DNA of 55,728 nucleotides from Ruminococcus sp. GTDB taxonomy: Bacteria; Bacillota; Clostridia; Oscillospirales; Ruminococcaceae. The notes below the pieces were generated by a model. That model did not search any database and had not been told where the DNA came from. It was given only the letters and a program-made list of their open reading frames with translations. Shown here piece after piece: positions 14,947-18,931 of this stretch; the stretch's first letter is position 1, and every line of letters starts with the position of its first letter. The translations under genes were made by a program, and so were the position numbers. The stretch covers positions 1-55,728 of the forward strand of contig JAJQGV010000145.1 in NCBI GenBank assembly GCA_021200215.1, given 5' to 3'.

Positions 14947-16236
14947 TTACTTAATAATATCCGTACCCATGTATGGAACTAACGCTTCTGGAACTGTAAT
15001 AGAACCATCTGCATTTTGATAGTTCTCTAATATAGCGGCAACGGTTCTACCCACTGCAACACCTGAGCCATTTAGTGTATGCACAAACTGAGCCTTATCC
15101 TTAGGAGTAGCCTTATACTTAATGTTTGCACGTCTTGCTTGATAGTCTACAAAGTTAGAACAGCTTGAAATCTCAACGTACCTACCATAAGATGGCATCC
15201 AAACCTCAATATCGTAAGTCTTAGCAGATGAGAAACCTATATCACCTGTAGATAATGCTACTACTCTGTAAGGTAATCCCAAACCTTGTAGAACTCTTTC
15301 GGCATCATTGGTTAGCTTTTCGAGTTCATCCCAAGAGGTTTCAGGGGTAGTAAACTTAACTAACTCAACCTTATTAAACTGATGTTGTCTAATGAGTCCA
15401 CGAGTATCACGACCAGCAGAACCAGCCTCGGAACGGAAACAAGCTGAGTATGCACAATAGCACAAAGGAAGTTGCTCACCCTTAAGGATATCATCACGAT
15501 ACATATTAGTTACTGGAACTTCAGCGGTTGGTATTAGGAAATAGTCATTTCCAACGTTATCTTCAGAAGATACTAACTTATAGGCTTGGTCTTCAAACTT
15601 AGGCAGTTGACCAGTACCCGTCATAGATGCTCTATTTACCATAAAAGGTGGTAGAATCTCGGTATATCCGTGTTCTGTATGAGTGTTCAAGAAGTAACTA
15701 ATTATACTTCTTTCAAGCCTAGCACCTAAACCCTTATAAAAGTGGAATCTAGCACCAGTTACCTTACTAGCAGTATCTGGGTCTAAGATACCTAACTTAG
15801 CACCTAAATCCCAATGTCCTTTAGGTTCATAATCGAACTTAGTAGGCTCACCGAACCTTCTAACCTCTATGTTTTCGGAATCGTCTTTGCCTATAGGAGT
15901 AGTTTCAGATGGAACGTTTGGAACACTTAATAATAGTTCTCGCTGTTTAGATTCAAGGTCTTTAATCTTAACATCTTGAATCTTAATCTTTTCAGCGATA
16001 GTTTTCATCTCAGCCATAATAGATGTAGTATCCTCGCCGTTCTTTTTCATCTGTGGAATCTGTTTAGATACCTTGTTCTGTTCAGCCTTTAAGCTGTCTG
16101 TTTCTGTAGAAATTTGTCTTCTTTGTTCATCAATGGCAAGAATGTCATCAATGTATTGGTCATAGTTGGCATTTCTAGTCTGTAATGCCTTTTTAATCTG
16201 TTCAGGATTTTCTCTAATCTTTTTAATGTCGAGCAT
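14947..16236 (-). CDS. serS: Seryl-tRNA synthetase
   Basis: N-terminal coiled-coil arm, class II motifs ([39 protein letters not shown]). Confidence 0.97.
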
Positions 16237-16307
16237 TTTAATTCCTCCAAAATATTATATATAATGTGAATCATTCACAATTATTGGCATTTTCGGTTAT
16301 TAGCAGC

Positions 16308-16590
16308 TTTGCAAGTGCTTGTCAAGTAGATAATTCCACTTAAAAAGCTCGTATATATGTAGTTTATCGATGATGTATGCTTGCTTGTCAACTAGTTGAC
16401 AAGCAGATTTTAAACTCTTACTTGTCAAGTGAAGTTATTACTTGTCAAGCAGTCAACCCACATAGATATGTGGTATAGTAATTAATAGATTTAATATCTT
16501 ATTCCTACTTGCAAAGTAGGTTTAAAGGCAGATTATCCACTTGTCAAGTACTTTGCAATCAACTACTTGTCAAGCTGATTGCAAAGCTGA
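16308..16590. repeat. Array of CTTGTCAAG / CTTGCAAAG palindromic 9-mers downstream of parB (left array)
   Basis: CTTGTCAAG at 16318, 16421, 16441, 16540 and 16566. 20-bp perfect palindrome CTTGTCAACTAGTTGACAAG at 16384-16403. CTTGCAAAG-type at 16308, 16507, 16551 and 16578. 16-bp palindrome CCACATAGATATGTGG at ~16458. Confidence 0.8.
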
Positions 16591-17348
16591 TTAACCAACG
16601 ATTTTAAGTCATCTTTGCCATAGAACTCTAATGTTATAGTACCTTTCTTATCTGAACCATCTATCTTGATTGGTCTATTTAAGATATCTTTTAAAGAGAG
16701 TTCAGTTTCTATATAGTATGTATCACGTTTCTTAAAAGTATCATCTTTGCAAGTAGATTTTAACCTCTTAACCCTATACTCCAACTGTTTAACCGATAAC
16801 TCTTCTTGTACGGTCTGCCTTGCCAAACTTTCTTGATACTTTTCTTCTACTGAAAGTATCTGTTTAGCATGAGCAACCGATAGCTTTCCATCTTCAACCA
16901 TAGATTTAACAGAACTAGGTAATTTTAAAAGTCTAACTATGTTGGCAATACTAGAACGTGAACGTCCAGTAGACTTTGAAATCTCTTCTTGAGTCAGATT
17001 AAACTCTTCTTTAAGACGCACAAAGCCTAAAGCCTCTTCAATTGGAGTTAAACTCTGCCTTTGAAGATTCTCACTAAACGATATCTTAAAAGCATCTAAG
17101 TCAGAAATATTATCCTTAATGATGGCAGGAATCTCACGTAATTGTGCAATTCGTGAGGCTCTCCAGCGTCGTTCACCTGCAATAATTTTATAGAATCCAT
17201 TTGGCATGGGCTTTACTATTATTGGCTCTATTACTCCATACTGCGATATAGAATCCGCTAAGTCATACAATGATTGCTCATTGAAATGTTTTCTTGGCTG
17301 ATTTCGGTCGGGTTCTATTTGAGATATCCTTAAGATTACAGTTTCCAT
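16563..17348 (-). CDS. parB: Chromosome partitioning protein ParB/Spo0J
   Basis: IAGERRWRA CTP-binding box, ENLQRQSLTPIEEA, and HTH LTQEEISKSTGRSRSSIANIVRLL. Confidence 0.93.
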   Translation of the reverse strand: METVILRISQIEPDRNQPRKHFNEQSLYDLADSISQYGVIEPIIVKPMPNGFYKIIAGERRWRASRIAQLREIPAIIKDNISDLDAFKISFSENLQRQSLTPIEEALGFVRLKEEFNLTQEEISKSTGRSRSSIANIVRLLKLPSSVKSMVEDGKLSVAHAKQILSVEEKYQESLARQTVQEELSVKQLEYRVKRLKSTCKDDTFKKRDTYYIETELSLKDILNRPIKIDGSDKKGTITLEFYGKDDLKSLVNQLCNQLDK

Positions 17349-17519
17349 GATAGTTTTACCCTTTCAACTTAATTCTAACCTATTATATCATAAATATGTG
17401 TGTTTGTAAAGATTCTAAACTAAATAATTTCTCAGTTTCTAAAAGATATTTCAATGTAAAAAATTTTGTAAAGTGGGGTTTTTTTGGCTCTTTTAAAATT
17501 GTACTAAAAACAGTACCAA

Positions 17520-17925
17520 AAAAGTTTTCCACATTGAGTGGGGGAATTTTGACTTTCCACAGAAGTTTTCAACATTTCCACTTGCAAAGCACTTGTCAAG
17601 CAATAAAACCGCATATCTATGTGGTTTAATATGTTGAAAGTTTTCCACTTGCAAACCTAGTATTCAAGTAGGTTTGCAAGTTGCAACCAGTTGACAAGCA
17701 CTTGTCAAGCTATTTGCAAGTGGAAAACTTCTTAAATTTTAGTTTTCAACACTATTTTGTTGAAAACTTGTGGAAAACTTTTAATTTTCACCCGAAAAGC
17801 ACATATTTTCGAAGTTTTAAATGTTGAAAAGTTTTCAACACTCTTACTTGACAAGCAAATTTTTTCGTCAAATTGCACAAAAGTTTTCAACAGTTTAAAA
17901 GTTTTCAACATCTTTCCACACCAAA
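17520..17925. promoter_or_regulatory. Second DnaA-box cluster mixed with GTTTTCAACA and CTTGTCAAG motifs, in the noc-parB spacer
   Basis: TTTTCCACA 17525, CTTTCCACA 17553, ATTTCCACT 17574, TTTTCCACT 17641, AGTGGAAAA 17719, TGTGGAAAA 17769, CTTTCCACA 17912. At least 7 (G)TTTTCAACA-type copies. CTTGTCAAG at 17592, 17701 and 17847. Confidence 0.75.
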
Positions 17926-18061
17926 AATTGGATATTTGGAATATTTTGTTATCGAAAAAGTACCCTGTAAACTTACGCATATTTTTACATTCGTCAATAT
18001 GCACAAAAGCCACTAGATTAGTATACTATCGATGTACTTTTATTCATACTGTAAAACATAC

Positions 18062-18100
18062 AAAAAATCGAGTGATACATTAATATCTACTCGATTTTTT
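18062..18100. terminator. Bidirectional terminator after noc
   Basis: AAAAAATCGAGT-loop-ACTCGATTTTTT, a 12-bp stem including A6/T6. Confidence 0.75.
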
Positions 18101-18121
18101 GTAGTATTTTTATAGCTAATT

Positions 18122-18931
18122 TTAGCCTTTAAAAGGTATTCTAACCCTATATTCTATATAGTCATCGCATTGATATTTGGAACTATTTGCCTTAATTCCA
18201 GCTGATTGCATATTCTCAATGGCTCTAGTTATGGTATTCATAAAGAATCTAACATCAGAAAATGACTTGGTGCGTCGTCTACTGGCACTCTTTAGATTAT
18301 TTTCTTCTATGTACTCAAGTACTGCCTTTTCAGTTTTTTCGACGTTTAAACGTTCCTTAACAACCTTATTAATTATGTTTAGTCTATCCTCTGGTGCAGA
18401 TAGTTTTAACAACGCTCTTGCGTGTCTTTCAGTCAATCCAAACTTGACTATAACCATGCGTTCTTCTTCAGTAAGCTTAAGTAATCTAAGCTTGTTTGCA
18501 ATGGTGCTTTGAGCCTTACCTAACTTTAAAGCAGTATCTTCTTGAGTTAATCCATAGCTTTTAATAAGTTTATCTATGGCTATAGCCTCATCGAAAAAGG
18601 ATAAATCTTTGTGCTGAATGTTCTCCACTAGGTTTAATATTGCACTATTTTTGCTATTTATTTCTAAAATAATGCAAGGTACAAAATCCAATCCTGCAAC
18701 TTTAGATGCTCTTAATCTTCTTTCACCCGCAATAACTTCGTAACCGTCATCAACTTTTCTAACGGTCAAGGGCTGTAAAATACCGTTTTGACGAATACTA
18801 TCAGCTAGTGCTGAAATATCTATATAATCGAACTCAGTTCTAGCCTGTTCACTATTAGGGTGAACCTCATCAATAGGAATCTGTACAACCTTTCCTATCT
18901 GTTTCTCTTTTAGATTTAAAAATGCTGTCAT
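18122..18931 (-). CDS. noc: Noc-like ParB paralogue (nucleoid occlusion protein)
   Basis: IAGERRLRA box, HTH LTQEDTALKLGKAQSTIANKLRLL, Noc-type C-terminus (DVRFFMNTITRAIENMQSAGIKA...YRVRIP), position directly after rsmG. Confidence 0.8.
   Translation of the reverse strand: MTAFLNLKEKQIGKVVQIPIDEVHPNSEQARTEFDYIDISALADSIRQNGILQPLTVRKVDDGYEVIAGERRLRASKVAGLDFVPCIILEINSKNSAILNLVENIQHKDLSFFDEAIAIDKLIKSYGLTQEDTALKLGKAQSTIANKLRLLKLTEEERMVIVKFGLTERHARALLKLSAPEDRLNIINKVVKERLNVEKTEKAVLEYIEENNLKSASRRRTKSFSDVRFFMNTITRAIENMQSAGIKANSSKYQCDDYIEYRVRIPFKG

Follow-up and report, generated by a model that had tools for sequence, protein, structure and literature searches.

Phased 9-bp repeats either side of parB are confined to the origin region of an uncultured Acutalibacteraceae genome and probably serve a membrane tether

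Introduction

Why is parB of an uncultured Acutalibacteraceae ('Ruminococcus sp.') genome bracketed by arrays of short near-palindromic repeats, and which protein would bind them? The arrays lie in a contig of 55,728 nucleotides, referred to here as the window. It belongs to a metagenome assembly of 1.89 Mb in 164 contigs (G000; 34.5% GC, 92.75% complete). The initial annotation offered two options: the repeats could be a non-canonical centromere or loading array for one of two encoded ParB-family proteins, or they could be bound by some other DNA-binding protein of the origin region. The latter option gained support from the confinement of the arrays to the origin region, a matching operator and a motif that changes with lineage. 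The ParB and Noc option fared poorly.

Work on origin-membrane anchors (RacA, RocS and, since 2026, RicO) has been limited to Bacilli; Clostridial relatives are listed without known sites. The present case predicts, from sequence alone, a protein, its cis sites and a site layout in which phased 9-mers occupy few loci on both sides of oriC and parB. A DNA-binding tether distinct from ParB and Noc is the probable means by which this uncultured gut Clostridium attaches its origin to the membrane.

Results

Two homologous arrays bracket parB

The genes flanking the arrays are serS, parB, a noc-like gene and rsmG; parA is absent. The relevant features of the window are as follows.

14947–16236, minus strand: serS, downstream of array A.
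16307–16586: array A, in the gap that separates the parB stop from the serS start; position conserved in G003, G011 and G005.
16563–17348, minus strand: parB (261 aa), lacking the N-terminal ParA-contact peptide; specificity positions R-I-K-A.
17525–17910: DnaA-box cluster of nine TTWTCMACA boxes, filling the usual parA/soj slot.
17581–17728: array B, in the noc-parB spacer; homologous to array A and conserved in G003, G011 and G005.
17847–17855, minus strand: isolated CTTGTCAAG site inside the DnaA-box cluster.
18122–18931, minus strand: noc-like gene (269 aa); specificity residues Q-K-K-R.

The arrays are made up of these elements.

Array A, units: CTTTGCAAG at 16307; CTTGTCAAG at 16318, 16421, 16441, 16540 and 16566; CTTTGCAA at 16551; TTGCAAAG at 16579.
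Array A, palindrome and hairpin: 20-bp palindrome at 16384–16403; hairpin CCTACTTGCAAAGTAGG at 16504–16520.
Array A, 16458–16473: 16-bp near-palindrome CCACATAGATATGTGG; related copies in the G011, G003 and G005 arrays.
Array B, units: CTTGCAAAG at 17581; CTTGTCAAG at 17592 and 17701; TTGACAAG at 17691; TTTGCAAG at 17713.
Array B, hairpin: CTTGCAAACCTA...TAGGTTTGCAAG at 17648–17680.

The 9-mer CTTGTCAAG occurs eight times in the 55.7-kb window, where 0.42 copies are expected. All eight fall within 16318–17855 and none is found elsewhere in the window. The related 9-mers CTTGCAAAG and CTTTGCAAG together account for four copies (0.34 expected). The five CTTGTCAAG copies of array A are positioned as initially annotated, and the 20-bp element is indeed a perfect palindrome. 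The final two sites of array A do overlap parB, and encode the C-terminus of its product (...NQLCNQLDK*). The proposal that two homologous modules lie either side of parB was also upheld, since the local alignment score of arrays A and B was 53, compared with 17.1 +/- 2.4 for shuffled sequences. Two details required correction. The 16-bp element CCACATAGATATGTGG had been described as a palindrome and is an imperfect one, with 7-bp arms around a central GA. The supposed copy upstream of dnaA (at ~26754; annotated at ~26763) is a partial match, TGTCAAG, with no array.

The partner of CCACATAGATATGTGG in array B is CCGCATATCTATGTGG, at 17609–17624. Further copies of CCACATAGATATGTGG, with identical flanks, sit at three contig ends of the same assembly (C30:26965, C104:2961 and C158:18), and probably represent one assembly junction upstream of trkA. 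We considered CCACATAGATATGTGG as a parS analogue and rejected it; the two array copies and the three contig-end copies are its only occurrences in G000. In G011 (L063), the array module 3' of parB has been amplified to at least four tandem copies of ~130 bp, which include CCACATAGATATGTGG and an extra CTTTAAAG motif.

The noc-parB spacer (773 bp; 17349–18121) is non-coding and contains the DnaA-box cluster. The same cluster is present in G003, at 71 kb. We discounted a degraded parA here; the spacer ORFs have no Pfam match and the spacer is occupied by DnaA boxes. Array B is flanked by composite DnaA-box/motif sites (TTTCCA-CTTGCAAAG and TTTGCAAG-TGGAAAAC) that are kept in four species. The main DnaA-box cluster lies between dnaA and dnaN, and no DnaA boxes were found upstream of dnaA itself. 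The predicted parB promoter is at 17382–17410 on the minus strand. Array B sits 170–310 bp upstream of this promoter and does not overlap it. An Rfam scan of 15800–18400 detected no T-box leader or other RNA family; the sole match, to rivX (E = 0.46), was put down to chance.

The arrays occur at few loci, all in the origin region

We scored the unit 9-mers CTTGWCAAG, CTTGCAAAG and CTTTGCAAG across the genome, and defined a cluster as at least two motifs within 120 bp. The whole genome has 36 copies of CTTGTCAAG. In the assembled sequence all clusters fall on four contigs, C120 (the window), C164, C99 and C137, at about five loci. The arrays are thus not peculiar to parB. Those outside the window are listed below.

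C164:975–1100: cluster at the fabD 3' end, upstream of aroE.
C164:2554–2712: cluster at the aroK 3' end, upstream of an amidohydrolase gene.
C99:7770–8133: cluster at the promoter of a gene for a 285-aa protein.
C137:395–575: cluster inside a metallophosphoesterase gene.

The initial annotation had cautioned that the 9-mer might simply be common throughout the genome. This was not so: 38 of the 82 instances of four 9-mers fall within the 8.7% of the genome made up by contigs syntenic to the origin contig of G003 (binomial p = 3e-19). The short repeats flanking parB are thus genuine, and arrays of them are restricted to the neighbourhood of the origin. Spacings between units within clusters are 11, 12, 22, 33 and 44 bp. 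The ~11-bp spacing suggests phasing with the DNA helix.

The four cluster contigs map onto a single 163.7-kb contig of the closest relative, G003. In that contig the arrays are at 24, 71–72.5, 104–106 and 154 kb, dnaA is at 60.7–62.0 kb and the oriC DnaA-box cluster is at ~60 kb. The outermost arrays of G003 therefore lie 36 kb from oriC in one direction and 94 kb in the other, a span of about 130 kb. Arrays are at the same loci in G003, G011 and G005, whose ParB proteins are 80, 72 and 67% identical to that of G000. Among these genomes the order and arrangement of units drifts, whereas the unit sequence is unchanged. Pairs of CTTGTCAAG within 40 bp were found only in the same-genus genomes G003, G011 and G009; the pair in G009 is probably due to chance.

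Some units are part of coding sequences. They supply the last codons and TAG stop of fabD and aroK (C164:1030–1064 and 2554–2577) and of parB (16563–16590). In the C137 metallophosphoesterase gene the units are translated in frame (C137:395–575), and this is conserved in G003.

ParB and Noc are unlikely to bind the arrays

Canonical parS (TGTTNCACGTGAAACA) and the Noc site NBS (ATTTCCCGGGAAAT) had been reported missing from the window. We confirmed this and found neither sequence in the whole G000 genome; fuzzy searches returned background numbers. With up to one mismatch, parS matched a single non-palindromic site, inside a gene on C67. An unbiased scan of 10–16-bp palindromes gave no parS-like over-represented candidate. 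At the same stringency, NBS had no match in G000 and none or one per genome in 13 sampled genomes of the family. Eight genomes were sampled from the order's other families, and five of them had between 1 and 10 sites each. Relatives with parA carry the parS sequence TGTTCCACGTGGAACA. In the subclade characterised by CTTGWCAAG arrays, canonical parS is missing and no parA adjoins parB. The best ParA-like match in G000 is 37% identical and is on C160. As a side finding, the array subclade has lost both parA and canonical parS, and a near-complete absence of Noc sites extends to the family as sampled.

The ParB of this subclade lacks the ParA-contact peptide, and at specificity positions 179, 184 and 201 it has I, K and A, compared to mostly S, S and G in the genus outgroup. 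Residue R173 and the overall helix-turn-helix are retained. The initial annotation had suggested that the recognition residues of ParB be compared. The outcome spoke against a ParB-array pairing: the residues are identical in G006, G004 and G008, while the array motif of G006 is different. Furthermore, G008 has parA, canonical parS and arrays of another motif together. The Noc recognition segment (GKAQSTIANKLRLLKL...TERHAR) is identical in eight genomes with differing array motifs. The specificity residues QKKR, at positions as defined previously (PMC7383237), are likewise unchanged. Because recognition residues stay constant while motifs change, and because G008 has both parS and arrays, ParB and Noc are unlikely binders.

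A 285-aa winged-helix protein is the candidate binder

The gene for the 285-aa protein lies outside the window, beside recA, at C99:7210–8067 on the minus strand. By synteny this is ~94 kb from oriC. The protein belongs to a small, unannotated family. In G000, G003 and G011 the promoter of the gene reads TTGACAAG-N-CTTTGCAAG-TATAAT, followed by CTTGACAAG-ca-CTTGCAAAG in the 5' UTR. In G005 the −35 element is a plain TTGACA, followed by CTTTGCAAG-TATAAT and then about eight downstream units. Judged by this layout, the array units over the promoter look like an autoregulatory operator.

Residues 1–66 were modelled as a winged helix of beta-alpha-alpha-beta-beta-alpha topology (pLDDT 78). The best fold match in the PDB was the RacA-DNA complex (5I44; TM 0.66). 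Further matches were to MerR-family proteins and to the DNA-binding domain of pSK1 Par (8CSH; TM 0.59/0.70; 27% identity over 51 residues). For this 66-residue domain the Foldseek E-values were weak (0.03–0.09), with a reported probability of ~1. In the full-length model the winged helix is followed by a single helix (residues 62–268; pLDDT >90), a disordered stretch and a short C-terminal helix (276–279). The ~200-residue helix matched generic coiled-coil and SMC profiles, and in the model is likely to be a coiled coil.

The C-terminal tail follows the pattern K-G-hydrophobic-hydrophobic-x-x-hydrophobic-F-G-K. Its variants include SLIEKLFGSK, GLLERIFGKK, GFLKKIFGK and GIFKRWFKK, and it is kept across divergent members even where the middle of the protein diverges. 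The hydrophobic moment of the tail is ~0.5, similar to that of the MinD membrane-targeting sequence. The tail is thus a predicted amphipathic membrane-targeting helix of the MinD/RocS type.

Profile searches placed the protein in no named group. Pfam returned only below-threshold matches to HTH_17 and MerR, plus coiled-coil noise, and there was no match to a named NCBIfam family. Searches of the PDB, which includes RacA and Par, with phmmer and hmmsearch found neither of the two. The family has a conserved Q-rich segment (QELTQNQQILMKQQQ), at most a putative counterpart of DUF536; DUF536 (PF04394) had no match at E <= 10 in 16 family members.

The array motif changes with the lineage of the protein

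Genus members with about 48% ParB identity encode divergent orthologues of the 285-aa protein. In G007, G008 and G004 the promoter of the orthologous gene contains GGTTGGTAAC. This motif occurs 19, 14 and 15 times in G007, G008 and G004, respectively, compared with 0–6 times for a control pattern, and most copies are in few clusters. The clusters include some in the dnaA promoter region, in the spoVAD-spoVAE spacer and on contigs with parB or noc. The G007 orthologue would be predicted to prefer arrays of GGTTGGTAACC. In G006 the motif is GTTKGCAACC, with 22 copies (none for the control), of which 16 are on the noc/parB contig. Both outgroup motifs are at background level in G000 and, in G004, G006, G007 and G008, likewise cluster near the origin. 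In the interval between rnpA and dnaA, the lineage-specific outgroup arrays extend over the −35 region of the dnaA promoter (G007, L100:1898–1960; G008, L103:2017–2080).

A phage-borne homologue, P0018 (192 aa; L104:2612–3190, on a metagenome contig), shares its recognition helix with the G000 protein and has an amphipathic tail. Its gene has a phage replication gene on one side and a gene for a cI-like repressor on the other. A phased array of TTGCAA, TTGACAA and CTTTGCAAG lies within its own coding sequence.

Two observations temper the association. In the P0013 branch, which is 55% identical and has nearly the same DNA-binding domain, the gene's own promoter has no motif. This counts against the motif being universal in the family's own promoters. 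In addition, G006 and G007 have almost identical DNA-binding domains and motifs that differ at the central base. For this reason, covariation rests on two clearly separate motif classes and the phage case.

Discussion

A model for the arrays and their binder

We consider it likely that the 285-aa protein binds the arrays. That the arrays are anchoring sites, similar to ricS and ram, for an origin-to-membrane tether of the RacA/RicO/RocS/Par kind is the explanation we favour, with reasonable rather than strong confidence. The argument starts from the enrichment of the motif, its restriction to the origin region, its presence at the same loci in four species, its change with lineage and the fold and architecture of the protein. 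From these we infer array binding, membrane attachment and a role for the protein in segregation or organisation of the chromosome.

In the model, oligomers of the 285-aa protein would bind the 9-bp units CTTGWCAAG, CTTGCAAAG and CTTTGCAAG, which a ~11-bp phase would place on one face of the helix. Binding would occur at about five loci, within 36 kb of oriC on one side and 94 kb on the other, with two of these bracketing parB. The C-terminal tails would then hold the origin domain at the membrane, as do RicO/ricS in Staphylococcus aureus, RacA/ram in Bacillus subtilis and RocS in Streptococcus pneumoniae. The same sites, over the promoter of the gene, would permit autoregulation.

Some results sit less easily with a tether. 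At the sequence level nothing connects the protein to RocS, RicO or RacA, and the fold matches have weak E-values. The P0013 promoter lacks the motif, and the G006 and G007 motifs differ in spite of near-identical domains. Since the assemblies are fragmented metagenomes, the confinement of the arrays refers to the assembled part, which is 92.75% complete for G000. Finally, several arrays are just upstream of aroE, the amidohydrolase gene or serS, where plain regulation is conceivable.

Alternative explanations

The protein might bind the arrays solely as a transcription factor, repressing itself and tuning parB, serS, aroE-aroK and the amidohydrolase gene with no anchoring. We regard this as unlikely, though worth taking seriously. 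Sites overlap the −35 element, spacer and 5' UTR of its own promoter, outgroup sites overlap the dnaA promoter and arrays precede aroE, the amidohydrolase gene and serS. Yet a ~200-residue helix and a conserved MinD-like tail are unlike a simple repressor, and every locus is within about 130 kb around oriC. Moreover, some arrays are within coding sequence (C137, C99) or at the 3' ends of genes, and array B is clear of the predicted parB promoter. We give little credence to the arrays being a non-canonical parS that loads the divergent ParB encoded between them. It is true that parS often flanks parB or overlaps its 3' end, as the arrays do, and that they are near the origin. The loss of parA and palindromic parS from the array subclade, when parA-bearing relatives keep TGTTCCACGTGGAACA, would fit too, as would a ParB with no ParA-contact peptide and altered residues at 179, 184 and 201. 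But in sister lineages the array motif follows the promoter of the winged-helix gene and not ParB. The ParB recognition residues shared by G006, G004 and G008, the coexistence of parA, parS and arrays in G008, and the retention of R173 and the ParB helix-turn-helix all point the same way, and 9-bp units at an 11-bp phase are unlike the 16-bp parS.

It is similarly improbable that some other origin-region factor binds the arrays, or that they modulate DnaA at the box cluster, so that the winged-helix gene is merely a target. The composite DnaA-box/motif sites conserved in four species would suit such a role, and the pairing of array and protein is predicted from sequence patterns. Against this, close lineages differ in their motif, and a conserved factor such as Spo0A or DnaA is thereby ruled out; Spo0A boxes were rejected as candidates on the same ground, although G000 has Spo0A. 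The simplest interpretation is that the adjacent DNA-binding gene regulates itself, and the phage homologue has an array within its own coding sequence. Selfish short repeats of the REP/MITE/BIME type, with no host function, are a very doubtful explanation. The arrays are mosaics of short palindromic units, some units extend or sit within ORFs (the parB, fabD and aroK tails; C137) and G011 has tandem 130-bp copies. However, selfish elements would hardly account for about five loci, all near oriC and in the same places in four species, for units strictly kept while their arrangement drifts or for a motif built into a conserved promoter. Reading the sequences by eye, rather than by formal scan, brought neither terminal repeats nor target-site duplications to notice. 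Least probable of all is the Noc-like protein, for which we see hardly any case. Its gene adjoins the arrays, and with no NBS in the genome it has no known target in G000. Even so, its recognition segment and QKKR residues are the same in eight genomes with differing motifs, and NBS is absent or single in the 13 sampled family genomes whatever the array type. Noc sites are normally spread over the chromosome and not confined to the origin.

Comparison with known systems

The anchoring model can be set against RicO of S. aureus. RicO binds ricS at nine positions near the origin, including one upstream of ricO itself, and an amphipathic helix at its C-terminus anchors the origin; the study places RicO alongside RocS and RacA and reports relatives in Clostridia (bioRxiv 10.64898/2026.03.06.710092). 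Both systems have few specific sites confined near the origin, with one upstream of the protein's own gene, and both hosts have ParB without ParA. The sites differ: ricS is a single 18-bp motif, neither repeated nor palindromic, at nine intergenic positions over about 700 kb, whereas G000 has arrays of 3–10 near-palindromic 9-mers, in 11-bp phase, at about five loci in 130 kb, some of them intragenic. RicO has no detectable sequence similarity to the 285-aa protein, for which array binding is a prediction; links to RicO and RocS were judged by profile searches (Pfam, NCBIfam).

RacA of B. subtilis provides the best fold match for the DNA-binding domain (5I44), and has a coiled coil, as is predicted for the 285-aa protein. 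RacA also has centromere-like sites around the origin, some inside coding sequence, and the G000 host has Spo0A. Conversely, RacA has no amphipathic helix and anchors via DivIVA, it is specific to sporulation, and ram, which has 25 sites spread across about 600 kb, is a GC-rich palindrome of 14 bp. RocS of S. pneumoniae combines a MerR-type winged helix, a coiled coil and a MinD-like C-terminal anchor, features that are predicted by modelling in the 285-aa protein, and both hosts lack ParA. The winged helix of RocS resembles those of RacA and Par (PMC11500499), and RocS and Par share a MinD-like tail and DUF536 (PMC11500499, PMC13042908). The DUF536 of RocS, with its three conserved glutamines, has no match in the 285-aa family, and RocS is thought to bind DNA by topology and not by sequence.

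The arrays also recall the ParB-parS and Noc-NBS systems, in which specific sites, in the origin region or chromosome-wide, organise DNA, and the arrays flank parB. The motif, unit length and phasing differ, and the motif does not co-vary with ParB or Noc. What the G000 system shares with known anchors is predicted architecture, origin restriction and a site at its own gene; it departs from them in using phased arrays of 9-mers instead of single 14- or 18-bp sites.

A wider scenario is speculative. In this Acutalibacteraceae subclade, a single-protein Par-like anchor may have replaced ParABS in handling the origin, with the parA slot taken over by anchor arrays and DnaA boxes. Tethering, ParB and DnaA titration or initiation control would then be physically coupled. 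The ancestry of the anchor could be shared with phage or plasmid partition proteins that carry an intragenic centromere, and its motif would turn over fast between sister species. Apart from this scenario, the predicted specificity variants of sister species would amount to a natural swap experiment, the loss of ParA and parS is linked to array gain at the parB locus, and putative anchor sites beside a DnaA-box cluster lead to testable ideas on the coupling of segregation and initiation in gut anaerobes.

The fourth relevant system is Par of plasmid pSK1, whose DNA-binding domain (8CSH) matches that of the 285-aa protein in fold, with 27% identity over 51 residues. The centromere of pSK1 Par consists of short repeats upstream of its own gene and is also autoregulatory. 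Par differs in being plasmid-borne and in having DUF536, whereas the G000 system is chromosomal and has several loci. The phage homologue P0018 resembles Par in adjoining a replication gene, and has an array within its coding sequence; it may represent a partition module of one protein whose centromere is intragenic.
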